Of a stretch of 45,212 nt of DNA, positions 646 to 45,212 are shown piece after piece. The stretch covers positions 1 through 45,212 of the forward strand of contig JBGUUU010000031.1 of the NCBI GenBank assembly GCA_045133775.1. The letters are read 5' to 3'. The stretch comes from Christensenellaceae bacterium (GTDB lineage: Bacteria; Bacillota; Clostridia; Christensenellales; Borkfalkiaceae). Every line of letters starts with the position of its first letter. Positions within the stretch are counted from its first letter, which is position 1. A program made the translations under genes and the position numbers. A model generated the notes under the pieces. That model made no database searches. It was not told the DNA's origin and saw only the letters and a program-made list of their open reading frames with translations.

Positions 646-987
646 ATGAGTAACGCGTATTTAAAATTAAATGATAAAACAGGAGCAATGGTAGAAAACT
701 ACGTGCCAGACGGCGAGCTACTTGATGAGCTTACAGGTATATTTTCGGTTTTTGCAGATAAGACAAGGCTTAGAATTTTGTCATCTTTAACAATAACCGA
801 TATGTGTGTTAGCGATATATCTTCGGTTTTAAAAATAAATCAAACCACCGTATCACATCAACTAAGGCTACTAAGAAACCTAGGGGCAGTAAACTGTTAT
901 AGGTGTGGTAAAATCGTTTACTATTCGTTAAAAGACGAACTTCTTGGAGAAATATTATTAAAGGGTATAGAATTTTTAAGCAAATAA
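646..987 (+). CDS. ArsR/SmtB-family metalloregulatory transcriptional repressor
   Basis: Winged-HTH signature: ...FADKTRLRILSSLTITDMCVSDISSVLKINQTTVSHQLRLLRNLGAV...YYSL. Confidence 0.85.
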   Translation: MSNAYLKLNDKTGAMVENYVPDGELLDELTGIFSVFADKTRLRILSSLTITDMCVSDISSVLKINQTTVSHQLRLLRNLGAVNCYRCGKIVYYSLKDELLGEILLKGIEFLSK

Positions 988-1106
988 AGGCTTATATGCT
1001 GCGGTATGCGTCGTTACTGCAAATTGTCCTTGACTGGTATGACCACAGAGGTCTATCCCATCCAATGCCAATTTGCGAGCCTAGCCTACCTTGCATCTAA
1101 GCCTTT
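986..1106 (+). repeat. Structured 121-nt interspersed repeat, copy A (MITE-like: TIR AAGGCTTATATGC...GCATCTAAGCCTT, TA flanks)
   Basis: Shares termini, a central bulged hairpin (ATAGACC-N5-GGTCAT) and overall length with the copies at 8058, 12665 and 17603. Its first A completes the arsR TAA stop (985-987). Confidence 0.7.
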
Positions 1107-1142
1107 ATTGTATATAATGATAGGTATTCATTGTAACAGAGC

Positions 1143-1179
1143 ATAATAAAAGCGCCGTTGCGAAACTTCGCAACGGCGC
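1143..1179 (-). terminator. Terminator of fba
   Basis: Hairpin GCGCCGTTGCG/CGCAACGGCGC followed by TTTTATTAT on the minus strand. Confidence 0.7.
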
Positions 1180-5106: not shown

Positions 5107-5219
5107 TTTGTTATAAAAAGGTTAAAACTGGTCAAAAATATAGGCGAGTGAAACTTAAAGCTAAAAAAATACATATATTATAGCGAAGGGTTTTGCCGAA
5201 TATATTGGGAGATTGGTTT

Positions 5220-5573
5220 ATGATAAAGCGTGGAGAATTGTATTACGCAGACCTAAGCCCCGTAGTCGGTAGTGAACAAGGTGGCGTGAGACCTGTTCTT
5301 GTTGTTCAAAACGACGTTGGCAACAGATATAGCCCAACGGTTATAGCTGCTGCTATAACTAGCCAAATAAACAAGGCAAAACTACCCACACACATTGAAC
5401 TTAGTGCTGTAGATTACGGGCTTAGTAAAGATTCTGTCGTATTATTAGAGCAGATTAGAACTTTAGATAAAAAAAGGCTAAAAGAAAGAATTGGTGAATT
5501 GCCAACGTCGACAATGGAACGAGTGAACACAGCTCTTTTGATTAGCCTTGGCTTTTTAGAGAAAAACGCATAA
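5220..5573 (+). CDS. mazF: MazF/PemK/EndoA-type mRNA interferase toxin
   Basis: I place the start at ATG 5220 (SD GGGAGA). The product [49 protein letters not shown]...KLPTHIEL is near-canonical EndoA/MazF. Confidence 0.85.
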
Positions 5574-5711: not shown

Positions 5712-7859
5712 ATGACTGATTTAGCTCAAAGAATTAAACAGTTAAAAGATATAAGAAGGTTAACAAGTAAACAGCTTTCTATTTTAAGTGGCGTTCCACT
5801 AGGAACGCTCAATAAGGTTTTAACAGAATCGACAAAAAGCGTTAAAACAGAAACGTTAAAAAAGCTTGCAGATGCGCTTTCTGTTTCGGTTGCATATCTT
5901 TTGGGTGAAGAAAACGAGCCTATTAAAAAGACCGTTGAAAACTATGGTTTTATAAAGGTTGCCGCAGTTACTCCAGAGCTTCATCTTGGCAACGTTGAAA
6001 AAAATGCCTGCAAGATAAAAGATTGTATTTTAGAGCTTTCTGCAAAGAGAGTATCGCTTGCTGTTTTTCCAGAGCTTAGTCTTTGCGGTTATACGGTTGG
6101 CGATTTAACTTCTTTTGATTTATTACTTAACAAATGCGAAAAATCATTATTAGATATCGCTGATTTTACAAGAAATTACGACATGTTGATTTTTGTCGGT
6201 TGCCCTATTAGACACGACGGAAGGCTTTACAACTGCGCTGTAGCAATATGTGGTGGCGAGATTTTGGGTATCGTGCCAAAAACGAGAATTCCATCTTATG
6301 ATGAGTTTGGTGAAAAGAGATTTTTCGCTCCTTCTCCAGACGATAACACTACTGTAAATATTTTAGGCAACGAATATCCTTTTGGCAATAAATTGCTTTT
6401 TGAAAATAGTATTTTACCAGATTTTAAGGTTGGCGTAGATATTTGCGAAGACTTGTGGTTTGTTCACAGTCCTTCAGAGCATCACGCTTTAAACGGTGCT
6501 ACTATTATCGTAAACTTGTCTGCAAGTAACGAGCTTATCGGTAAGGCAGAAAGAAGGGAAAAACTAGTTGCAATGCAGTCTTATAAAGAGTGTGGCGCAT
6601 ACGTTTACGCAAATGCAGGCGTTGGCGAATCTTCAACAGACTTGCTTTTCTCTGGTCATAATATAATTGCCGAAAATGGTAAAATTTTAGCCGAAACGGA
6701 GCTTTTTACAAATAATATGGCAATTGCAGACGTTGACGTATCGTTTCTTCAGTTTTTAAGAAGAAAGAAGTTTAACTATAAGTCAGAACATACTGAAGGT
6801 TACAAAACTATAAAGTTTACGTCTTTCGTATACGGTGGTTTCTTAACTCGCTTATACGATAAATCTCCGTTTATTCCGTCAAACGAAAGAGAAAGAATTA
6901 ATGCGATGGAAACGGCTCTTAATATTCAAGCTCACGCCCTTATTAGAAGGTTAAATCAAATATACAGTAAAAAGGTTGTAATTGGTCTTTCTGGTGGTCT
7001 TGATAGCACGCTTGCAATACTTGCTGCATGTAACGCATACGATAAAATGCGAAGGTCAAGAAAAGATATAATTGCAGTTACAATGCCTTGTTTTGGAACA
7101 ACGGACAGAACTAAAAGCAATGCTGTTCTTTTAGCGGAGTGTTTAGGCGTTACTTTAAAAAAAGTTAATATAAGCAAAGCAGTTCGCCAACATTTTGAAG
7201 ATATCGACCACGACGAAAACATTGCCGACGTAACCTTTGAAAATGCTCAAGCAAGAGAAAGAACACAAGTTTTAATGGATATTGCTAATGGTTACGACGC
7301 TATAGTTTTGGGAACGGGCGATATGTCGGAATTGGCTCTTGGTTGGGCAACCTATAACGGCGACCATATGTCAATGTATGGTTTAAACGCTTCAATTCCT
7401 AAAACTCTTGTTAGAGCAATGGTAAATCACGTTGCACAAAAAGAAGGTGGTGAGCTTTCTAGGGTTCTTTTAGATATATTAGATACTCCTGTTAGCCCAG
7501 AATTGTTACCAACTAAGGGCAAAGAGATGGATCAAAAAACTGAAGACATAGTAGGGCCTTACGAACTTCACGATTTCTTCTTGTATCACTTTATCGCAAA
7601 TGGTTTTTCTCCGTCAAAAATTTACAAAATCGCAGTAAAAGCCTTTGAAAATGATTATAACGAGCAAACGGTTTATAAGTGGCTTGAAAACTTCTTTAGA
7701 AGATTTTTCATACAGCAATTTAAAAGGTCTTGTATGCCAGACGGTATTAAGGTTACGCCAATTTCGTTCTCTCCAAGAGGCGATTGGCATATGCCTAGCG
7801 ATATGGACAGGGAAATGTGGCTTGAAGATTTAAAAACCGTAGCACCATATAAAAACTAA
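5712..7859 (+). CDS. nadE: Glutamine-dependent NAD+ synthetase with an N-terminal XRE-type HTH domain
   Basis: Residues 1-70 form an HTH_XRE module (LAQRIKQLKDIRRLTSKQLSILSGVPLGTLNKVL...LADALSVSVAYLLGE). A CN-hydrolase domain follows from GFIKVAAVTPELHLG, then the NAD synthase domain (GLSGGLDST). One frame with no internal stop. Confidence 0.85.
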   Translation: MTDLAQRIKQLKDIRRLTSKQLSILSGVPLGTLNKVLTESTKSVKTETLKKLADALSVSVAYLLGEENEPIKKTVENYGFIKVAAVTPELHLGNVEKNACKIKDCILELSAKRVSLAVFPELSLCGYTVGDLTSFDLLLNKCEKSLLDIADFTRNYDMLIFVGCPIRHDGRLYNCAVAICGGEILGIVPKTRIPSYDEFGEKRFFAPSPDDNTTVNILGNEYPFGNKLLFENSILPDFKVGVDICEDLWFVHSPSEHHALNGATIIVNLSASNELIGKAERREKLVAMQSYKECGAYVYANAGVGESSTDLLFSGHNIIAENGKILAETELFTNNMAIADVDVSFLQFLRRKKFNYKSEHTEGYKTIKFTSFVYGGFLTRLYDKSPFIPSNERERINAMETALNIQAHALIRRLNQIYSKKVVIGLSGGLDSTLAILAACNAYDKMRRSRKDIIAVTMPCFGTTDRTKSNAVLLAECLGVTLKKVNISKAVRQHFEDIDHDENIADVTFENAQARERTQVLMDIANGYDAIVLGTGDMSELALGWATYNGDHMSMYGLNASIPKTLVRAMVNHVAQKEGGELSRVLLDILDTPVSPELLPTKGKEMDQKTEDIVGPYELHDFFLYHFIANGFSPSKIYKIAVKAFENDYNEQTVYKWLENFFRRFFIQQFKRSCMPDGIKVTPISFSPRGDWHMPSDMDREMWLEDLKTVAPYKN

Positions 7860-7936: not shown

Positions 7937-8043
7937 AAAGGGTTAGATACGAGCAAGACGGGATTTTTGCGAGATTTTTGCAAGGGAATTACCTTGTTGG
8001 TCAGCAACGTGACGTTGCATCCGTGTATTTAGCCGAACTCCTT
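7937..8043 (-). repeat. Structured interspersed repeat, copy B1 (degenerate)
   Basis: 5' AAAGGGTTAGATACGAGCAAGACG and central ACCTTGTTGGTCA match the family. The distal end is diverged and carries a 5-nt insertion. Confidence 0.55.
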
Positions 8044-8057
8044 ACAAAGTGAGTTTT

Positions 8058-8178
8058 AAAGGATTAGATACGAGCTAGCCAAGGCTCGTGAGCTTGAAAA
8101 GACTTGGTAGACCTTGTTGGTCACCAAGGTTTTGAAAGCGAAACAGTTAACGCAGGCTAGCGAAGTAGATAAGAATTT
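8058..8178 (-). repeat. Structured 121-nt interspersed repeat, copy B2
   Basis: AAAGGATTAGATACGAGC-tagccaag-GCTCGT..., TTGGTAGACC-TTGTT-GGTCACCAA, ...GTAGATAAGAATTT. TA flanks. Abuts the U-tract of the riboswitch terminator. Confidence 0.7.
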
Positions 8179-8295
8179 AAAAAGGGCGCACTCGTTCCGT
8201 AAAACAGTGCGCCCAGACGGTCGGCTAATAGGATTTCTCCTTTTGGTTTTCCGTTTCACCGTGTTAATCACGCAATCCGTCAGTCGCAGAAAACC
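8179..8295 (-). promoter_or_regulatory. ZTP (pfl-motif) riboswitch with intrinsic terminator expression platform
   Basis: Minus strand: GGUUUUC-UGCGACUGACGGAUUG-CGUG-auuaa-CACG-GUGAAAC-GGAAAACC, linker, then AGCCGACCGUCUGGGCGCA. This matches the conserved GACUGGCG ... CCGCCUGGGC blocks of the pfl motif. The pseudoknot pair covaries (GACGG with CCGUC). Terminator GGGCGCACU-N13-AGUGCGCCC-UUUUU overlaps the 3' aptamer strand. Confidence 0.7.
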
Positions 8296-8309
8296 ATTAA
8301 GTTGATATA

Positions 8310-8442: not shown

Positions 8443-9531
8443 TTAAATTTTATGCTCGCTTTCGCAGTAAATACATTTATAAACGCCTTCTCTATCAGTT
8501 GGCACGAATTTATGGTCAAGCTCTTGCTCAACAGACGTAATACAACTTAAATTTAAGCATCTAATTTTATTGACTAAAGCGTTACTTTCGTCGTGAGTTG
8601 GTAAAACGCCGTTTTCAGCATCTTCTAAAAGCTTTAAAATAAGGGCCATACGCATATATTTTGCATTTAAAACTTGTTTAAAATAGCAAGCTCTCTTATC
8701 GTCGTCTAACTTAACGCTAATTTCGTTTACCCTTGGAAGTGGGTGCAAAATACAGGTGTCGTCTTTTGCAAGCTTCATTTTTTCTGGAGTTAAAATATAG
8801 CTATCTTTAAGTCTTTCATACTCGTCTTGATCAAAGAATCTTTCGCCTTGAACTCTTGTCATATATAAGATATCAAGGTCTTTGAGAGAACCTTCTAAAT
8901 CTCTTGTTTCAACGTATTCCATACCGTTCTTTTCAAGCACGCCTTCTCTTACGTATTTAGGAAGTTTAAGCTCGTCTGGAGAAATTAAAACAACCTTAAT
9001 TCCCGTATATCTTGCAAGCGCGTTGATGAGTGAGTGAACGGTTCTTCCATATTTTAAATCACCGCAAAAACCTATGCATAAGTCGTTTAAACGGCCTTTT
9101 TCTCTATGAATAGTCAAAAGGTCCGCAAGTGTTTGAGTTGGGTGGCAATGGCTACCGTCGCCCGCATTTATAACAGGGATTGACGCGTTCTTTGCAGCAA
9201 CGTAAGGAGCGCCTTCTTTAGGGTGTCTTGTAGCAATAATATCTGCATAACAGCTAACAACCTTTGCAGTATCCGCCATGCTTTCGCCCTTTGATGCAGA
9301 AGTGCTACTTGCAGCAGAAAAGCCTAATACGCTACCACCGAGCTCGAGCATTGCAGCTTCAAACGAAAGTCTTGTTCTTGTAGATGGCTCAAAGAAAAGA
9401 GTTGCAAGTTTTTTACCCTTGCATTTTTCTGCATATTTGCTTGGATTTTCAATAATATCGTAAGCTGTTTTAATAAGACCGTCAACTTCTTCTACGGTTA
9501 AATCTATAATGTCGATTACACTTCTTTTCAT
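8443..9531 (-). CDS. pyrB: Aspartate carbamoyltransferase catalytic chain fused to a PyrI-type C-terminal zinc domain
   Basis: STRTR and HPLPR motifs in the first ~300 aa. The C-terminal ~50 aa, [42 protein letters not shown], has the 4-Cys pattern of the PyrI zinc domain. Confidence 0.85.
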
Positions 9532-10187
9532 TATGCCTTTGCTCCGTAAACTTCTAAATATTTTTTAATTCTTGCAACGTTTTCTTCGTTTGCAGAATCT
9601 TCTTCTAAATACTCGATAATATCGTAAACGTCAACAACTGAATATACTGGGAAACTAAATTCTTCGCCTACTTCTGCCATAGCGCTCTTTTCGCCTTGTC
9701 CCTTTTCTTTACGGTCTACCATAACGAAAGTAGCGCAAACCTTTACGCCTTCTAAACCTTTCATTATATCCATAGTTTCGCGAATAGCAGTTCCTGCAGT
9801 TATAACGTCTTCAACGATAACAACTTCTTCGCCAGCAGTTGGCTTATAACCTACAAAAACACCGCCTTCGCCGTGGTCTTTTGCTTCTTTTCTATTGAAG
9901 AAGAAAGGAAGGTTTAGACCATTTTTAGAAAGAGCGATAGATGCTGAAACGGCAATAGAAATACCCTTATATGCAGGGCCGTATAAAACTGCCTTTTTCT
10001 CACCCATTTTATCTAAATAACTTTTAGCGTAAAATTCGCCAAGCTTAGCAATATTTTCACCTGTTTTAATTTCGCCCGCATTGATAAAGTAAGGGATTTT
10101 TCTACCGCTTTTTGCAGTGAAATCACCAAATTTTAAAACGCCTGCATTTTGTAAAAATTGTATAAACTCTCTCTTGTAATTTTCCAT
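9531..10187 (-). CDS. pyrE: Orotate phosphoribosyltransferase
   Basis: PRPP loop [13 protein letters not shown]; operon context; the stop overlaps the pyrB start (TAATG). Confidence 0.9.
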
Positions 10188-10230: not shown

Positions 10231-10275
10231 AAAAAGGTTTAGAGATGCCGTATTGCGTGGTTTATAAGCCTTTTA
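10231..10275 (-). repeat. Internally deleted (~45 nt) derivative of the structured repeat, copy E
   Basis: Minus strand: TAAAAGGCTTATAAACCACGCAATACGGCATCTCTAAACCTTTTTA. It keeps both terminal arms only and starts in the pyrF TAA stop. Confidence 0.5.
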
Positions 10276-11882: not shown

Positions 11883-12619
11883 ATAATTTCCTCCTTACAA
11901 AGAACAGGGCCGTCTTTACATATTCTCTTGTTGCCGTAAAGCGTTTTGCAAGAACAACCCATGCACGCGCCAAAGCCACAACCCATTCTCTCTTCAAAGC
12001 TGAATTGTCCACTAGTAGCGCTTGCATTATAAACTGCTTTAAGCATTGGTTCTGGCCCACAAGTAAAGAAATAACTATAGTCTACGCCTTGCATAGCGTT
12101 AGTTACAAAACCTTTTACCCCATACGAGCCGTCAACAGTTGTAACGGTAACGTTTGCGCCGAGTTTTTTAAACTCTTCTTCGTAAAAAACTTCATCTTTA
12201 GTATTAAAACCGAGTATAACCGAAACGGATTTACCCCCGTCTATAAGTCGTTTAGCGCATAAATACATAGGTGGAACACCTACGCCACCACCAATTAAAA
12301 GTGGCTTATCTCCACTTTGCGAAAGGTCGTAACCATTGCCAAGCTCGGTTAGAACGTCGAGCTTTTGTCCAACCTGCATTTGGGACATTTTTTCTGTGCC
12401 TTTACCAACGACTTTGTAAACGAGAGTGAGTTCATCTCCCACAATGTCGCATACGGAGATTGGACGGCGAAGATATAATCCATCGATTAAGATATTAACG
12501 AACTGACCGCACTTAATACCTGAAACGTCGCCTTTTAATTTCATTTCAAAAACGGTTTCGGTAAGACGGCGAGTTGAAGAAATTTCAAAAATAATTTGTT
12601 TCATTTTTATCCTTTGCAA
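11870..12619 (-). CDS. pyrK: Dihydroorotate dehydrogenase B, electron-transfer (FAD/2Fe-2S) subunit
   Basis: 249 aa; RRPISV flavin motif and C-terminal CGFGACMGC...C cluster. Confidence 0.9.
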   Translation of the reverse strand: MQRIKMKQIIFEISSTRRLTETVFEMKLKGDVSGIKCGQFVNILIDGLYLRRPISVCDIVGDELTLVYKVVGKGTEKMSQMQVGQKLDVLTELGNGYDLSQSGDKPLLIGGGVGVPPMYLCAKRLIDGGKSVSVILGFNTKDEVFYEEEFKKLGANVTVTTVDGSYGVKGFVTNAMQGVDYSYFFTCGPEPMLKAVYNASATSGQFSFEERMGCGFGACMGCSCKTLYGNKRICKDGPVLCKEEIIWEK

Positions 12620-12664
12620 CTAATCGTTGCATTCGTGTTGTTTACTCTTATCAAGTAAGTATTT

Positions 12665-12785
12665 AAAGGGTTAGATGCGAGCAAAAGAAGGCTCGCTTTG
12701 TGGCACAAGACACAATAGACCTTTGTGGTCATTGGGGTTTGGGGTACAAAGCAGAAACGCACTTTTGCGAAGTATATAAGCCTTT
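12665..12785 (-). repeat. Structured 121-nt interspersed repeat, copy C, inside the pyr operon between carB and pyrK
   Basis: AAAGGGTTAGATGC-GAGC-aaaagaag-GCTCGC-TTTGT...CAATAGACC-TTTGT-GGTCATTG...ACAAAGC...CGCA-cttt-TGCG...GTATATAAGCCTTT. TA flanks. Its terminal A completes the carB TAA stop (12786-12784). Confidence 0.75.
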
Positions 12786-15700
12786 AAGCGTCGATAGTAG
12801 AAATACAAAGCGTAGTTTCTTCTAATACGTCGAGAAGAACTTTTACAGTATCGAGCGACGTAAAGATTGTTACGTTAGACTCCGTTGCATATTTTCTAAT
12901 TTGGTATCCGTCTGATGCTGACGAAGGTGAACCTACACTGCTTGTGTTGATAACATACGCAATGTGACCTTGACGGATAGAATCAAAGATTTCTTCACTT
13001 TCTTCAATCTTTTTAAGAACGTGTGTTCTTATGCCGTTTTCTTTAAGGAATTTAGCCGTGCCTGCAGTAGCTTCAATATTAAAACCAAGGTTGTAGAAAC
13101 GACGGATAAGTGGAAGGGCTTCTTCTTTATCTTTATCTGCAATAGTTGCAAATACAGTTCCATAATTTTGAAGGTGCATGCCTGATGCTTGTAATGCTTT
13201 ATAAAGCGCACGGTTAAGTTTATCATCATAACCGATAGCTTCACCAGTTGACTTCATTTCAGGAGAAAGGTATGCGTCTAAGCCCCTAATCTTATTGAAT
13301 GAGAATACAGGAACTTTTACGTACCATCTTTGCTTTTCTTCTGGATATATATCGAAAATACCTTGTTCTTTTAATGTTTTACCCATAATAACTTCGGTAG
13401 CGATATCTGCTAAGCTATAACCCGTTGCTTTAGAAAGGAAAGGAACAGTTCTTGAAGAACGTGGGTTTACTTCGATAATATAAACTTTTTCATCTTTATC
13501 TACGATAAATTGAATATTGTAAAGACCTTTAATGCCTATGCCTACGCCAAGTTTTTTAGCATACTGCAAGATAATGCCTTTTACCTTGTTTGAAATACTG
13601 AACGTTGGGTATACGCTTATTGAGTCGCCCGAGTGAATACCCGTTCTTTCAACAAGCTCCATAATACCTGGAACAAATACATCTCTACCATCGCAAATTG
13701 CGTCGATTTCAACTTCTTTACCGATAATATATTTATCAACAAGTACTGGCTTATCTTCATCAATTTCAACGGCAGTTTTAAGATAATGTCTAAGTTGGTC
13801 TTCGTTTGAAACGATTTGCATTGCTCTACCACCTAAAACAAAGCTAGGTCTTACAAGAACAGGGTAACCAATTTTTGCAGCGGCAGCAACACCGTCTTCA
13901 ATCTTAGTAACTGCTCTACCTTCTGGCTGTGGAATGCCAAGGTCTTTTAAGAGTTTTTCAAATCTGTCACGGTTTTCTGCCTTGTCGATAGCATCGCAGT
14001 CCGTTCCAATAATTTCAACGCCCCTTCTCATAAGTGGCTCTGCTAAGTTAATTGCAGTTTGACCACCGAGAGATGCGATAACGCCTTGTGGGTTTTCAAA
14101 CTCAACGATGTTCATAACGTCTTCTGGAGTTAATGGCTCAAAGTAGAGTTTATCTGCAGTAGTATAGTCTGTAGAAACAGTTTCTGGGTTATTATTAATA
14201 ATGATTGCTTCATAGCCAGAGTTTTTGATAGTTTGAACTGCGTGAACTGTAGAATAGTCGAATTCTACGCCTTGACCAATTCTAATAGGACCTGCGCCTA
14301 ACACGACAGCCTTTTGCTTGTCGGTAAGAATAGATGCGTTTTCGCCTGTATATGAAGAATAGAAATAAGGAATATAAGCGCCACTATATAAGGTATCAAC
14401 CATCTTGAAGATAGGCTTAATATTGTTTTCTCTTCTTAAGTTGTAAACGTCAATTTCCTTCACACCCCAAAGTTTTGCGATATATGGATCAGAAAAACCA
14501 AGCTTTTTAGCATCAACAAGAGTTTTTAAATCGCCCTTGTTTGCTTTTAAGGTGTTTTCCATATCTACAACATTCTTAAAACTCTCTAAGAAAAGTTCTG
14601 TAATCTTAGTTACGTCGTGAATTTTAGCAATACTTTCGCCACGGCGTAAAAGTTCGGTAACGGCAAAGATATTATCCGACTTAAACTCCGTTAAATATTC
14701 GTAAAGCTCCTGTGTTGTATAGCTATCAAATTTAGCAAGATATAAATGGTTTACACCAATTTCGAGTGAACGAACAGACTTAAGTAAACACTCTTCAAGG
14801 TTAGAACCAATACCCATAACTTCACCCGTAGCCTTCATTTGAGTGCCGAGTTGGTTTGATGCAGACGTAAACTTATCAAATGGGAATCTTGGGAATTTTG
14901 CAACTATGTAATCAAGCCTTGGCTCGTGATCAGCTGTAGTGCCTGCAACTTGAATTTCATCTAAAGTCATACCTACTGCAATTTTAGCTGTAACTCTTGC
15001 AATAGGATATCCACTTGCCTTTGATGCAAGCGCTGAAGAACGAGAAACTCTTGGGTTTACTTCGATAAGGTAATATTCGCTAGTAGTTGGGTTTAATGCA
15101 AATTGAACGTTGCAACCACCTTCGATTTTGAGCTCTCTAATAATTTTGATAGCGCTATCGTTGAGCATCTTTAAATCCTTATCGCTGAGTGAAAGGATAG
15201 GAGCAACAACAACGGAGTCGCCTGTGTGAACGCCAACAGGGTCGATATTTTCCATACCACAAATCGTGATTGCCTTATCCGAGCTATCACGCATAACTTC
15301 AAACTCAATTTCCTTATAACCCTTTACGCTCTTTTCGATAAGAACTTGGTGAACAGGAGAAAGCTTAAACGCGTTAAGACCGATTTCGATAAGCTCTTTT
15401 TCGTTATAAGCAAATCCGCCGCCAGTTCCACCTAAGGTAAATGCAGGACGAAGAACGACAGGGTAACCGATTCTCTCTGCTGCAGCTTTAGCTTCTTCTA
15501 AGCTATAAGTGATTTCAGATGGAATTGTAGGCTCGCCGATTGATTGACAGAGCTCTTTGAACATTTCTCTATCTTCTGCTCTTTCGATACTTTCGCTACT
15601 TGTTCCTAAAAGTTCAACTCTACACTCTTTTAAAACACCCTTCTTTTCAAGTTGCATTGCAAGGTTAAGACCTGTTTGTCCACCGATACCGGGAACGATA

Positions 15701-17398: not shown

Positions 17399-17433
17399 TA
17401 AAAAAAGCCTTTGCGATAGACGCGCAAAGGCTT
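17399..17433 (-). terminator. Terminator ending the PRT-like gene plus repeat transcript
   Basis: Minus strand: AAGCCTTTGCG-cgtctat-CGCAAAGGCTT followed by TTTTTTT. Confidence 0.7.
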
Positions 17434-17477
17434 ATATAATATCAAATTTTGCTTTAAAAAAAATTTAGGTTAGGCTT

Positions 17478-17600
17478 AAAGGCTTAGATGCGAGTAAGAC
17501 GAGGCGTTTGCTTTTTAGAGGCAGGGAGCAACCTCTTTGGTCGCAGGAATGTTTATAAAAGGCAAAGTATTGCTTAGTGTTACACCGTGCTTTATTTTAT
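17478..17600 (-). repeat. Structured interspersed repeat, copy D1 (diverged distal end)
   Basis: AAAGGCTTAGATGCGAGTAAGACGAGG... and GCAACC-TCTTT-GGTCGC match the family. In tandem with D2. Confidence 0.55.
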
Positions 17601-17602
17601 TT

Positions 17603-17723
17603 AAAGGCTTAGATGCGAACAAAAGAAGGCTCGCTTTAAGGGATAAGACACAATAGACCTTGTTGGTCATTGGGGTTTAGACCTTAAAGCAGTAACACAC
17701 TTTTGTGAAGCATATAAGACTTT
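17603..17723 (-). repeat. Structured 121-nt interspersed repeat, copy D2
   Basis: Near-identical to copy C except for paired (compensatory) differences. TA flanks. Its terminal A completes the TAA stop (17724-17722) of the PRT-like gene. Confidence 0.75.
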
Positions 17724-18363
17724 AAAGTTTAGAATAGCCGTGGCTATTTACAAGCGCATCAATCTTTCTGCCTTGTTTACACATTGGACATTGGTGCGCC
17801 GGATAACTTGCATAGCCCTGCAAGTCCGTAGGGTCGAAAACTGAATGAACTTCATAACCAGAACACTCGTCAACGGTTGCGAAAATTGCGCTTACACCGG
17901 CAACGCTACCACCGTAATATTTTACAGCTTCTATCGCTGCGTTTGCAGTATAACCCGTTGTAACCGATGCAGACAAAATAAGCACGTTTTTGCCTTTTAC
18001 CGTTGGAATTATGTTATCTCTTAACAAAAGTTGGCTACCAGACGTATGCTCAGGAGTTATTACGTAAACGGTTTTATGCTCGTTCATGCTCATAAATCCA
18101 CCTTTTGTAAGCTCATCTGCAAGACAAGTGCCTACAACCTGCATACCGTCAAGACACAAAATAGTGTCGATTATAGTGCTTGTTCTATAAAATGAAACCA
18201 AAGTTGACGCGATTGCTCTTGCTTCAGAAAGCCTTGTTTTTTGCATTGTAACGTCAATATAGTAGTTTATATGGCTATGGCTCGTTGCAAAGTGACCTTC
18301 TGCTACGCGAAGGGTAAGATTTGAATTTTTTACTGCTACTTTTCTAACTTTTTCTACAGGCAT
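17722..18363 (-). CDS. Phosphoribosyltransferase-fold protein with a degenerate PRPP-binding loop (function unknown)
   Basis: 213 aa. PRT-type loop VLILSASVTTGYT, in which the usual acidic pair (DD/ED) is replaced by SA. C-terminal CPMC motif. Confidence 0.55.
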   Translation of the reverse strand: MPVEKVRKVAVKNSNLTLRVAEGHFATSHSHINYYIDVTMQKTRLSEARAIASTLVSFYRTSTIIDTILCLDGMQVVGTCLADELTKGGFMSMNEHKTVYVITPEHTSGSQLLLRDNIIPTVKGKNVLILSASVTTGYTANAAIEAVKYYGGSVAGVSAIFATVDECSGYEVHSVFDPTDLQGYASYPAHQCPMCKQGRKIDALVNSHGYSKL

Positions 18364-34489: not shown

Positions 34490-35286
34490 AGAAATTCTTC
34501 CAAAGGGGTTATATTTGGCTTTTAATTGCCTTTTTATATGCTCCAATTCTTCTCCTTGCAGTATATAGCTTTAACAACGTTCAAATTATTGGTCAAGGAA
34601 CAAACGACTGGTCGCTCACTCTTTATAAACAACTCTTTACGAGTGAAGAGCTTATGACGACCGTTGTAAACACCCTTGTTCTTGCCATTGTTTCAAGCAT
34701 TATTTCTACTATTTTAGGAACAATGGGCGCAATCGGTATGTTCTATAGCAGAAAAAGGGTTAGAAACACATTAAATACCGTAACTCAAATACCAGTTATT
34801 AACGCAGAAATAGTAACGGCGATTTCTACTGCTTTAGTTTGCACGATGTTCGCGTTTGGTAGAACTTACGTTTCTCTTCTCATAGGTCACGTAATACTCA
34901 CCTTCCCGTTTGTCGTTTTAAACGTAACGCCAAAATTAAAGCAAATGGATAAAAACCTTTACGAAGCCGCTTTAGACCTTGGCGCAACGCCAACTCAAGC
35001 TCTTTTTAAGGTTATTATTCCACAAGTGCTCCCTGGTATTTTCTCTGGATTCTTAATTGCAATTACACTCTCTCTCGACGATTACATAATAACAACCTTT
35101 ACAAAGCCAACTACCTTTAGCACTATTTCAACCTTCGTTTTCGACGCGTATGCTAAAGGCGGAAGAAGCGCAGACGTTCCTGCACTTAGAGCTTTATCAA
35201 CTATTATTTTCTTAGTTATAGTTTTAATGTTAATCGTTAAAAACGTGCTTGCATCTAAAGGCGCAAAAGCAGGGGGTAAAAAGTAA
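34483..35286 (+). CDS. potC: Spermidine/putrescine ABC transporter permease
   Basis: 267 aa polytopic; EAALDLGATPTQALFKVIIP. Confidence 0.8.
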   Translation: MVKKFFQRGYIWLLIAFLYAPILLLAVYSFNNVQIIGQGTNDWSLTLYKQLFTSEELMTTVVNTLVLAIVSSIISTILGTMGAIGMFYSRKRVRNTLNTVTQIPVINAEIVTAISTALVCTMFAFGRTYVSLLIGHVILTFPFVVLNVTPKLKQMDKNLYEAALDLGATPTQALFKVIIPQVLPGIFSGFLIAITLSLDDYIITTFTKPTTFSTISTFVFDAYAKGGRSADVPALRALSTIIFLVIVLMLIVKNVLASKGAKAGGKK

Positions 35287-43392: not shown

Positions 43393-45212
43393 TTATTCAC
43401 AAATTGTCAAAGACGTAACAGCATCCGTACGAATCCAAAACGTCATTTTCATACTAGCTTCAGGTATCTCATTTGCTACACGCGATTGAAATACATACGT
43501 ATGCTCATAAATGCTATTGCCACTTTCCGCTTTAATCGTTAAAACAGGTTTATTATCAATGATTTTTACAGTCATATATAGCGTAGCCCCACCATCAAAC
43601 ATGGTATTAGGCAAGTGCATACCCGTATTTCGACCAACTTCTTTCATATTACCGCTTGCATCTATCGTATAAGGGCGCATTTCCCCGCCACGACATTCAA
43701 ACCCATAACTACCGATAAATACTCTCAATCCACCTTCCGTATTTGCAACAGTCGTTGTTTGCATTTTTACGAGAGCTGTTTTACCGTAACCAATTGTTCC
43801 CGTGCTTACAAGCGGTGTTCTATTAGCTGTAAGTTTAATTTCCCCTTGCTCGTTAAACGCAAAAATCTGGTTCATTGTTACTATATTTAATTCTTTCCAA
43901 TCTAACGTAAATTCCGTTTCCGTTCCGTCATTAAAGACAACCTTACACAAAGTATCCCCATCAGGTAAAGATGGAAGCTGTGCCGGTGTAACGGTAATTT
44001 TACCGTCAGAATAAGTAAAGGCTGTTTCAACGTTACCAATATATAATTTGCTAGGTATCTTCTTACCAACTAAAGAAAGAACTAAATCGCCATCCACGTT
44101 CTTTATATAAGAAGCAGGAGCATATATTGTTGCTTTTGTAGGCTCACCAAAAAATATTGCTTTAATATTATAAATTTCCGTTTCGGTTACACCAATAGAA
44201 AGCAAATAATTCTCTGTTTTTTCCTGCAATGAATTTCCCGGATACGTCTTCAATGTTGTAAGGAATGGTTGGAAATAATTATTTGCCCAGTCCCCAGAAT
44301 GCGCATTACGAATATTATAAGTTGAAAAACTTGTAAATTCATATCCTTGAATACACTCTAATTTCGACACACCAAGAAGCGCATGCAATAAAAACGTCAC
44401 CGTTCCTGTTCTATCTGCCCCACCTGTACAATGATAATACAATGGGTAATTGTTTTCGTCTGCTAAATAAGAGAATATTTTACGATAGCCTTCTTTAGAA
44501 GTAAATGCAGCCGAATAACCACCTACAGTGATATAAGTAAGCGTTGCACCTGGGATTACACTACCCCCTTCAACACCCGATTCTTCAGCATTACGGAAAT
44601 CAAGCTCTGCCTTAATTCCCATTACTTCGCTCATATATAGTTTACCATCATCGGTAAGATTACTTGTATATATATCTTTAGGTGGGGGAGTCAATGATCC
44701 GCCTCGATACGCTATACCTTGCACGATTGTTTTACCAAATGAAGTCTCATACCCACCTAAATCTCTTACGTTATGTATAGCATCAATCTTCATAACACGT
44801 GGTCCAAGCGACGTCGTTTGAAATTCGCTTTCTGCTATATCAAGCGTTTCGCCTTCAGAATCTAATGCTTCCACACTTACGTAATAAGTTGTTCCCCTAT
44901 ACAAGTTATATAAATCAACCGAACGTTTTGAAGAGCTAACTTCAACCGAAATAGCATCAGAAAAATCCACCTTAGTTGCATAGCTTACAAGAAACTTTTT
45001 TACATTTTCCCCTTCATATTCCCACTTCACTTTAATAGGCGCATAAGCATTATCCATTAGCTTAAAATAATCAGCAACGTCCGCGCCTTCTCCTGCTTGC
45101 AAATACTCTTTAGCTGCATCTGCATAAGGAAAAACTTCTCCTACTGGAGCAGTAATCATAAGAGTATATTCAATAGGTGATTCACTCTCGCTCTCGCTTT
45201 CACTCTCACTTT
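43393..45212 (-). CDS. Fn3-like plus CX5R phosphatase-like protein with a ~260-aa extra C-terminal beta-rich region; 5' end outside the window
   Basis: HCTGGADRTGTV and NVRDLGGY motifs, paralogous to 40311-41324. The reading frame stays open upstream of the track's Met to the window edge through a (SE)n linker (SESESESESESPIEYTL-MITAP...). Confidence 0.7.
   Translation of the reverse strand, partial: SESESESESESPIEYTLMITAPVGEVFPYADAAKEYLQAGEGADVADYFKLMDNAYAPIKVKWEYEGENVKKFLVSYATKVDFSDAISVEVSSSKRSVDLYNLYRGTTYYVSVEALDSEGETLDIAESEFQTTSLGPRVMKIDAIHNVRDLGGYETSFGKTIVQGIAYRGGSLTPPPKDIYTSNLTDDGKLYMSEVMGIKAELDFRNAEESGVEGGSVIPGATLTYITVGGYSAAFTSKEGYRKIFSYLADENNYPLYYHCTGGADRTGTVTFLLHALLGVSKLECIQGYEFTSFSTYNIRNAHSGDWANNYFQPFLTTLKTYPGNSLQEKTENYLLSIGVTETEIYNIKAIFFGEPTKATIYAPASYIKNVDGDLVLSLVGKKIPSKLYIGNVETAFTYSDGKITVTPAQLPSLPDGDTLCKVVFNDGTETEFTLDWKELNIVTMNQIFAFNEQGEIKLTANRTPLVSTGTIGYGKTALVKMQTTTVANTEGGLRVFIGSYGFECRGGEMRPYTIDASGNMKEVGRNTGMHLPNTMFDGGATLYMTVKIIDNKPVLTIKAESGNSIYEHTYVFQSRVANEIPEASMKMTFWIRTDAVTSLTICE

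Follow-up and report, generated by a model that had tools for sequence, protein, structure and literature searches.

The 45,212-nt contig JBGUUU010000031.1 of a Christensenellaceae bacterium (assembly GCA_045133775.1) was analyzed over its whole length and is called the window here. It carries a pyr operon, an arsR-like gene, a ZTP riboswitch and, in the spacers beside them, copies of a short repeat. The focal copy, D2, follows the gene for a 213-aa phosphoribosyltransferase-like protein and shares bases with its stop codon. These copies belong to a lineage-restricted, many-copy family of noncoding, hairpin-forming repeats that is confined to one clade of uncultured herbivore-gut Clostridia. 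One end of the element lies on or close to the stop codons of genes, in a nearly invariant orientation.

Repeat copies at gene ends in the window

Table 1. Repeat copies, stop codons and adjoining features in the window
Feature	Position	Strand	Description
Stop of arsR-like gene	985-987	+	Junction AAA TAA AGGCTTATATGC; ArsR family by Pfam
Copy A	986-1106	-	Full core; right end over arsR-like TAA; orientation opposite to the other copies
38-nt tail (ATTGTATATAATGATAGGTATTCATTGTAACAGAGCAT)	1107-1144	+	Between copy A and the bidirectional terminator 1152-1179
Copy B1, type II unit	7937-8057	+	Left arm and loop 7937-8011, then module X (GCAACGTGACGTTGC ATCCGTGTATTTAGCCGAACTCCTTACAAAGTGAGTTTT) replacing the right arm
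Copy B2	8058-8178	+	Full core; degenerate right end AAATTC... adjoins the T-tract of the ZTP riboswitch terminator (- strand)
Mini copy	10233-10273	+	41 nt; both termini retained, center deleted; directly 3' of the pyrF TAA
pyrF stop	10273-10275	-	Junction GGA TAA AAGGCTTATAAAC; offset by one A
Module X-like tail (GCAACTAATCGTTGC ATTCGTGTTGTTTACTCTTATCAAGTAAGTATTT)	12605-12664	+	Distal side of copy C
Copy C	12665-12785	+	Full core in the carB/pyrK spacer of the pyr operon; right end over the carB TAA
carB stop	12784-12786	-	Junction GCT TAA AGGCTTATATAC
Intrinsic terminator of 213-aa gene	17405-17433	-	D2 and D1 lie between stop and terminator, in the 3' untranslated region (UTR)
Copy D1	17478-17602	+	Distal degraded unit: left arm, loop, partial right arm (positions 1-82 of the hidden Markov model, HMM)
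Copy D2 (focal copy)	17603-17723	+	Full 121-nt palindromic core
TAA stop of 213-aa phosphoribosyltransferase-like gene (17722-18363)	17722-17724	-	Junction CTT TAA AGTCTTATATGC

The forward strand of D2, which begins with AAAGGCTTAGATGC, is the + strand. The right end of D2 reads AAAGTCTTATATGC on the minus strand and shares bases with the TAA of the 213-aa gene, the last two bases of the stop being the first two A's of this end. The junctions of the arsR-like gene, carB and the 213-aa gene share this T/AA-AGG register, and the pyrF junction has one extra A. All four junctions had been placed at these coordinates in the initial annotation and agree with the open reading frame (ORF) listing and with Pfam. 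The TA dinucleotides first described on both sides of copy A (985-986 and 1106-1107), B2 (8057-8058 and 8178-8179), C (12664-12665 and 12785-12786) and D2 (17602-17603 and 17723-17724) are present as read then, and B2 does begin in the T-tract of the ZTP riboswitch terminator. The pattern formed by the left terminus and the apical motif has six matches in the window and none in shuffled sequences. The 213-aa protein is called an orotate phosphoribosyltransferase in some sources and has no Pfam match.

Some units depart from the full core. The right terminal inverted repeat is absent from B1. D1 has a 44-nt tail where its right terminus would be, and the intact version of this unit in a near-identical strain (L190) is placed directly on the stop codon. 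The 38-nt tail beside copy A is restricted to alleles that have this copy. The module X-like tail beside copy C is missing from empty alleles and supplies the sequence immediately 5' of the ribosome-binding site and the ATG of pyrK, whose start is at 12604.

A lineage-restricted repeat family

The family was counted in about 800 kb of DNA from related genomes (L001-L103; loci are cited by such numbers throughout) plus the window. Open frames of at least 80 codons served as gene proxies and define what is called intergenic. Some copies are orthologous between species represented by metagenome-assembled genomes (MAGs), so the counts are not fully independent. More than 103 stretches match the repeat pattern in eight Clostridia/Christensenellaceae-like MAGs. 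These come from the guts of sheep, goat, roe deer and others, and their shared genes are about 75-90% identical to those of the window. The fetched DNA contains 107 distinct full copies of 120-122 nt, and a profile HMM gave 254 matches that group into 133 arrays of one to five units each. In a bovine gut metagenome, the depth of repeat k-mers is 17-40 times that of the unique flanks. The repeat is absent from 80 loci (0.67 Mb) of relatives with PyrK 63-74% identical, which were obtained by a metagenome scan with PyrK. Plasmid, phage and viral-contig collections gave no match to the element or to a parent insertion sequence. No Rfam family matches the repeat, and the ZTP riboswitch is the sole Rfam match.

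Among the small interspersed repeats that are transcribed and keep their structure, a known class of the BOX/ERIC/bcr1/REPIN-like kind, this element forms a new family. It has the properties of the BOX/ERIC/bcr1 class in that it is multi-copy, noncoding, intergenic and strain-variable, forms a hairpin with compensatory changes and, on weaker evidence, is co-transcribed. It provides a named, testable repeat for uncultured but abundant Clostridia of ruminant and herbivore guts. Its copies break metagenome assemblies (contigs end inside them, and the synteny of the window breaks at one) and inflate apparent strain differences.

Structure of the hairpin and its mosaic units

The core spans 121 bp (127 bp with the conserved TTT/AAA), has the termini TTTAAAGGnTTAGATGC... 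and ...GYATATAAGCCTTTAAA and carries the apical motif TAGACCTnnnTGGTCA. The consensus ends in the alignment are AAAGGnTTAGATGC on the left and GYATATAAGCCTTT on the right. Full copies have terminal inverted repeats at both ends, AAAGGnTTAGATRC and its near-complement. The core is one long imperfect hairpin. RNAalifold was used for analysis of 57 copies and returned 32 pairs, 19 of which show compensatory change on both sides; columns 22/100, for example, pair as A-U (27), C-G (14) and G-C (14). Canonical pairs occupy 83% of cells versus about 40% when the partner is shifted. Apart from the stem, the conserved features are the apical TAGACCTnnnTGGTCA, asymmetric internal loops and a near-invariant G.T at columns 45/74. 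These data show that the long stem is maintained by compensatory changes.

The two strands differ in stability. In 102 of 106 copies the more stable fold is that of the strand that begins with AAAGGnTTAGATGC, with mean energies, calculated with RNA parameters, of -45.8 kcal/mol versus -36.8 for the complement. In D2 the forward strand has -43.4 kcal/mol and the reverse strand -36.2. The transcript of the upstream gene carries the less stable strand.

The family is also a mosaic. Units of type II, B1 among them, have a 45-55-nt module X (GCAACGTGACGTTGC ATCCGTGT...CTTACAAAGTGAGATTT) where the right arm would be, and in type III units the left terminus is joined straight to module X. Both types are frequent and have the left terminus only, with no right terminal repeat. 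Module X-like tails close many arrays, that of copy C included. Module X is a second repeated module in its own right, a hairpin of GCAACGTGACGTTGC and then ATCCGTGT...CTTACAAAGTGAGATTT that lies in the window at 7937-8057 and 12605-12664 and elsewhere at, for example, L021:4982-5293 and L009:90-158. One roe-deer MAG has four fusions of the left terminus AAAGGCTTAGATRCGAGC with another conserved sequence, GCGTCGCAACTCGATTTTTTGTCAACCAACCGTGGCTACGGTTGGTAAAACTTTTC (L007:2583-2596 and 129-142; L042:5384-5397; L044:125-138), which is one more mosaic partner or possibly a separate repeat family.

Stop-codon anchoring and orientation

An ORF ends exactly in the T/AA-AGG register at 23 of the 107 full copies. 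Another 28 have a stop 0-12 nt upstream, so that a stop lies within 12 nt at 51 of the 107. The commonest spacing between stop and copy outside the register is TAA TTT AAAGG (nine cases), and TAA TTTT AAAGG also occurs. The base before the TA of the stop is T in 20 of the 23 copies of the in-register (+2) class. The enrichment at stop codons proposed in the initial annotation is borne out by the census: a stop is overlapped by 16 of the 69 arrays with genes on both sides, versus about 3.5% under a random-TA model (p = 2e-9), an expectation (any TA outside ORF bodies) that is rough since intergenic space is set by the ORF proxies.

The end that abuts the stop is always the right end, AAAGGCTTATATAC; the left end, AAAGGnTTAGATGC, lies on a stop in that register in no copy (23:0). 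Where an array has an end within 8 nt of a stop, this is the right end in 38 cases and the left end in one. Arrays between co-directional genes, the pyr operon included, make up 45 of the 69, and all 45 have one orientation (45:0). No mixed orientation is found among 83 multi-copy arrays, whose units are arranged head to tail. Adjacent units within an array belong to distinct sequence subtypes, so that plain tandem duplication does not account for them. Where the spacer is convergent, 14 of 20 arrays lie close to the gene that their right end faces, and seven of these genes are on the minority strand of the locus. This is an argument for an orientation tied to the neighboring gene and not to replication direction; the seven minority-strand cases weaken replication direction as the cause of orientation, with the locus majority strand being a crude proxy for it.

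The accumulation of copies at 3' ends had been attributed to the regeneration of TAA upon insertion. This reason is insufficient. TAA regeneration cannot explain the distribution because both termini are identical over TTTAAAGG and the right one alone is found on stops. The 23:0 and 45:0 orientation counts therefore require an orientation-specific factor, which could be selection on the transcript or directional insertion.

Arrays anchored at a stop are polar. All 40 such arrays have a full unit next to the stop (mean score of 92 bits), and distally the unit is partial in 20 of 29 cases (mean 64 bits). The strict orientation, the stop anchoring and the intact-proximal, decayed-distal arrays are cleaner than the descriptions found for BOX, ERIC and Correia elements. 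They make the family a system for the old question of whether repeats are placed by the machinery of insertion or through selection on mRNA.

Overlap with the stop is coding-neutral

The right end of the element starts T/TAAAGG and so can overlap a native ...T TAA without a change to the protein. The coding neutrality claimed at the outset for this overlap holds, with stop positions equal in filled and empty alleles wherever they are comparable. The carB stop codon has the same position in the empty alleles L003, L083 and L091 as in the filled ones, and pyrF ends at the same position whether its site has a full copy, the mini copy or nothing. Of the 120 listed homologs of the 213-aa protein, all but six are 213 aa long, the exceptions having 199-291 aa, and the same length holds for close relatives without a repeat in the 3' spacer (L184, L185). 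The register itself is labile. Orthologous carB genes end GCA TAA TTT AAAGC in L076 versus GCT TAA AGGC in the window, L040 and L193, and the 213-aa gene ends CTC TAA TTT AAAGTC in L072 versus CTT TAA AGTC in the window. This 5-nt difference leaves the protein unaltered at both genes. A repeat end that supplies a neutral TAA is real, yet it has a published precedent in pneumococcal BOX elements, in which 36 genes have their stop codon encoded by the repeat and show no sign of truncation (PMC3049150).

Flanking sequence and empty sites

The initial annotation read the TA flanks as a target-site duplication made by an IS630/Tc1-mariner-type transposase. The element would then be a classical MITE (miniature inverted-repeat transposable element; AAGG...CCTT) for which a DDE transposase cuts and duplicates TA, and stops would accumulate copies through the neutrality, described above, of hitting the TA of a TAA or TAG. 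The base composition of the flanks agrees with this explanation. More than 90% of copies have T at -1 and A at +1, and the preference continues outward (T at -1, -2 and -3 in 101, 94 and 81 of 107 copies; A at +1, +2 and +3 in 97, 100 and 94). The flanks of copy A (..AAATA/AAGG...CCTT/TATTG) have TA as their sole shared direct repeat, which fits a TA duplication; a 4-bp TTAA duplication at this copy is ruled out by the flanks ATAA/TTAT. The commonest spacer between copies, AATTT, is the product expected of a TA-duplicating insertion into a TAA TTT AAAGG stop (L040 versus L076).

The conserved terminus is, however, longer than first assumed, and the TA lies inseparably inside the terminal palindrome TTTAAAGG...CCTTTAAA. 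TA, TTAA and TTTAAA are self-complementary, and therefore duplication and palindrome extension look alike. Flanks that deviate covary as inverted complements, such as GATT..AATC and AAT..ATT (Fisher p = 1e-7, 2e-4 and 3e-4 at three positions). This covariation is expected of the outermost base pairs of the hairpin and not of direct duplication. Direct repeats of 2-5 nt at offsets of 0-5 outside the core do not rise above permutation, and the same result was obtained for 5-bp repeats of the bcr1 kind and for other lengths. An IS630/Tc1-mariner MITE, with its symmetrical ends and palindromic target, is expected to insert in random orientation, and the counts observed are 23:0, 45:0 and 38:1 with no mixed array. 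A bare TA target does not predict the T before the TA of the stop in 20 of 23 copies, and the frequent type II and III units lack the right terminal inverted repeat.

Comparison with empty sites, proposed as confirmation of the duplication, gave complex replacement at every strain-level difference in L190, L193 and L201 and no clean insertion. The best empty sites come from sister strains about 97.5% identical, and none is clean. The empty arsR allele (L201) reads GCAAA TAA AAAATTGCAAATAAAAGCGCC. Relative to it, the filled allele has five A's fewer and 32-38 extra bases after the element, and its adjoining arsR 3' end is about 80% identical. The difference is an allele replacement in a recombined tract and is more than the element plus TA. 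In the sister strain, carB/pyrK has one additional degenerate copy with imperfect flanks, and at pyrF the last six codons differ too. A strain whose protein is 99% identical carries, at the focal site, another copy on the stop and also differs in the distal part. An all-against-all flank search between MAG species was swamped by tandem copies and yielded few true empties, with spacers too diverged to read a duplication. The assembled contigs of eight metagenomes, compared with the window, end inside repeats; their joints are cross-copy artifacts, and no precise excision or empty allele was seen in them.

The window encodes no transposase, and the multi-copy ORFs in about 0.8 Mb of repeat-flanking DNA are all syntenic orthologs. 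Orphan termini continue into other short repeats, not into ORFs. The search for an IS630-family transposase thus returned no candidate from the window and no multi-copy ORF other than these orthologs from the flanking DNA. With inverted covariation of the flanks, no direct repeats above chance and no transposase in the window, TA duplication by an IS630/Tc1-mariner-type enzyme is not demonstrated.

Gain and loss between strains

Gain and loss of copies is seen both among species and among strains. A copy is present at carB/pyrK in the window, L040 and L076; L003, L083 and L091 have the empty site. At pyrF, a full-length copy is present in L086 and L034 and the mini copy in the window, and the site is empty in L003, L040 and L193. 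The site 3' of the 213-aa gene is empty in L184 and L185, and that of arsR in L201 and L209. Strains about 97.5% identical differ at three of five sites. At L190, L191 and L192 (3' of the 213-aa gene) and at L193:8967-9279 the flanking proteins are 99-100% identical to those of the window, and the repeat subtype on the stop and the copy number differ. Arrays turn over much faster than the surrounding genes. The pyrF mini copy is a central deletion of the full copy found at the same site in L086, and central deletion is the usual fate of long palindromes.

Transcribed context

Copies lie in transcribed spacers, with positions between stop and terminator, between cistrons and in a riboswitch leader. 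Copy A is located between the arsR stop and the bidirectional terminator, and D2/D1 occupy the interval from the stop of the 213-aa gene to its terminator. The sister strain has B2 plus one more copy in the spacer that separates purE from the ZTP riboswitch. Bovine metatranscriptomes contain RNA-derived contigs over B2 and over the stretch from the pyrK 5' end through module X into part of C.

The repeat does not behave as an intrinsic-terminator-like element of the SPRITE type. A terminator scan finds the native terminators at 1152-1179 and 17405-17433, outside the copies. The weak 7-pair stem at 1000-1021 inside copy A has no T-run after it, and the tail that follows the element is TTTAAA, not a T-run, which counts against a SPRITE-type terminator. 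A promoter in module X or in the element ends was likewise rejected, since no sigma-70-like match lies inside any copy.

A promoter-like TTGCGA-18-TATAAT (10/12 matches) is present outside the copies at 17411-17440 (+), within the terminator hairpin of the 213-aa gene. It aims into D1/D2 along their better-folding strand, antisense to the 213-aa gene. The -10 hexamer is kept in the near-identical L190 and L193 and reads TATAGA in L072.

The ZTP riboswitch (8204-8297, - strand), with a promoter-like site at 8339-8310 and a terminator that ends at about 8178, is an orphan in the window, where it is followed by B2/B1 and the convergent nadE only. In the sister strain (about 97.5% identical; L193:13365-13951) the same riboswitch, B2 and another copy are followed by purE-purC-purF-purM-purN-purH-glyA. 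Collinearity between window and sister strain stops at 8052, a few bases from the B2/B1 boundary (8057/8058). The window at 8052 has undergone either a repeat-mediated rearrangement or, in assembly, a chimeric join at the repeat.

Explanations for placement and orientation

The preferred explanation, which has about an even chance of being correct, combines insertion at A/T-rich TTTAAA-like sequence with transcript selection that removes the orientation with the stabler helix in mRNA. New copies would enter at the stop-proximal end of an array, where a TTTAAA-like sequence would be formed by 'NNT TAA' and the terminus of the previous copy. Entry at this end would explain why intact copies are next to the stop and decayed or mosaic units are distal. 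Orientation would be fixed by one strand alone being tolerated, or useful, in mRNA, the transcribed strand being about 9 kcal/mol less stable. The opposite orientation would put a near-perfect 50-bp RNA helix in a 3' UTR or operon, where it would be a likely target for double-strand RNases or a block to transcription. After insertion, copies would be remodeled by recombination with one another and by central deletion of the palindrome. ERIC elements have an orientation-dependent effect on upstream mRNA that also depends on closeness to the upstream stop codon (PMC2229807), and bcr1 is transcribed and keeps its RNA fold through compensatory changes (PMC3184786).

Several observations weigh against insertion followed by transcript selection. 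No insertion was caught cleanly; the differences are complex or lie in recombined tracts, so present-day mobility and the insertion site are inferred. Transcript-level selection on orientation is hypothetical. The difference in fold stability between the strands is real but largely inherited from the family consensus, and the G.U versus A.C asymmetry over all arm mismatches (194 versus 164) is weak and not decisive for the strand of function. Selection alone gives no obvious reason for an array to start 0-8 nt from the stop rather than elsewhere in the 3' UTR. The polarity of the arrays is partly built in, in that a unit without a right arm cannot score as stop-abutting. The RNA-derived contigs that cover copies are few, unstranded and possibly DNA.

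A strand-specific mechanism acting on hairpin DNA could dispense with transcript selection altogether. Directional insertion of a folded single strand, as by REPIN/RAYT, IS200/IS605 HUH or attC-like tyrosine recombinase systems, would yield the fixed orientation, the head-to-tail arrays and the lack of a target duplication, and no such duplication is detectable here. From end to end the element is a single long, imperfect hairpin whose asymmetric internal loops are conserved, with the G.T at 45/74 and strong covariation, one strand is the better folder in nearly all copies, and strict orientation is coupled to apparently polar addition at one array end. The element size and its position right after ORFs recall attC/VCR sites. 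This mechanism is nevertheless considered unlikely. No RAYT, TnpA(Y1) or integrase gene is near any copy in the repeat-flanking DNA, and the ends have neither the GTAG/CGTC tag nor the RYYYAAC/GTTRRRY cores. Copies are dispersed beside housekeeping genes and not collected in one integron-like locus, and an orientation that tracks the adjacent gene even on the minority strand misfits targeting by replication direction.

Rather than a passive cut-and-paste MITE, the family might be a directional hairpin-dependent element that is added repeatedly and in a polar manner at gene 3' ends, each new copy entering between the stop and the previous copy in one orientation, by a mechanism that reads the folded strand or the termination of transcription or translation. 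The chance of this is slim. If true, the family would amount to a recombination system of the attC or REPIN type that is spread across housekeeping genes and not confined to one locus.

The copies could also be functional RNA modules, such as 3'-UTR or intercistronic stabilizers or processing or protein-binding sites, that are maintained by selection and spread by homologous recombination with little or no transposition today. Their transcribed positions (stop to terminator, the pyr operon, the pur leader), the covarying structure with its conserved apical and internal loops, and strain differences that resemble allele replacement are consistent with such a role, for which ERIC, BOX and bcr1 are precedents (PMC2229807, PMC3049150, PMC3184786). 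It is made improbable by sister strains and species in which the same genes lack the element and do well, by the decay of copies to mini and partial units, and by transcription of the less stable strand; hundreds of dispersed sites would still need an insertion mechanism. The IS630-type MITE is doubtful on the flank and orientation data, on an arsR empty site that removal of the element and TA from the filled allele does not reproduce, and on the lack of a transposase with matching ends in the window or the repeat-flanking DNA.

Comparison with known interspersed repeats

BOX elements of Streptococcus pneumoniae resemble this family in being small, noncoding, hairpin-forming and mosaic, in their dispersed intergenic positions in a low-GC Firmicute, in co-transcription with their neighbors and in supplying the stop codon of known genes (36 cases, PMC3049150). 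There is no sequence similarity between the two. BOX consists of boxA-boxB-boxC with a variable number of boxB, whereas the present element is a 121-nt palindrome with an optional module X, and the 45:0 orientation and stop-proximal array polarity were not found reported for BOX. ERIC/IRU and Correia (nemis) elements are MITEs that are also imperfect palindromes over their whole length, of about 100-160 bp, and are transcribed in operons and 3' UTRs. ERIC/IRU and Correia are said to insert at TA. ERIC and Correia are found in both orientations, whereas orientation is fixed here. In Correia and RUP elements the TA duplication is supported by empty sites, unlike in this family, where none is demonstrated. 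A further likeness to ERIC is that orientation and proximity to the upstream stop matter for the upstream mRNA (PMC2229807).

The bcr1 repeat of the Bacillus cereus group shares with this family a Firmicute host, a comparable length (about 155 bp), differences between close strains, transcription and compensatory changes (PMC3184786). It differs in having clear 5-bp direct repeats and a cruciform with two stem-loops, as opposed to one long hairpin. REPINs and BIMEs, which are associated with RAYT, are hairpin doublets of about 50-120 nt that are extragenic, often in 3' UTRs, mosaic and present as large within-genome populations. The arms here are about 55 nt with A/T-rich tips, in contrast to short G+C-rich REPs, and the arrays are head to tail rather than alternating. 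The consensus ends AAAGGnTTAGATGC and GYATATAAGCCTTT carry no GTAG/CGTC tag of the REP/REPIN type. Integron attC sites (the 121-126-nt Vibrio VCRs) are similar in length, in being imperfect palindromes with conserved ends and a variable but structurally conserved center, in lying directly after ORFs in a single orientation and in having one strand that is the better folder. Unlike attC sites, the copies of this family are dispersed on many contigs beside core genes (carB, pyrF, fba-side arsR) with no integrase seen. The attC R''/R' cores (RYYYAAC...GTTRRRY) are absent from the consensus, leaving the single orientation after ORFs as the only shared feature in that test.

Other features of the window

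The glutamine-dependent NAD synthetase (5712-7859, + strand) combines CN_hydrolase and NAD_synthase domains with an N-terminal Cro/C1-type HTH_26 domain, an unusual fusion. The aspartate carbamoyltransferase catalytic chain (8443-9531, - strand) is fused to a PyrI_C-like metal-binding domain in a protein of 362 aa. The operon holds two phosphoribosyltransferase-type genes, at 9531-10187 (Pribosyltran domain) and 17722-18363 (no Pfam match). A MazF/PemK-family toxin gene (5193-5573, + strand) is preceded by an ABC transporter ATPase gene, with no obvious antitoxin ORF directly upstream. Other repeats in the window lie within paralogs: 40986-41071 matches 44399-44484 in two Y_phosphatase3 genes on opposite strands, and 34151-34226 matches 34948-35023 in two adjacent ABC permease genes. 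Both pairs are unrelated to the hairpin family.

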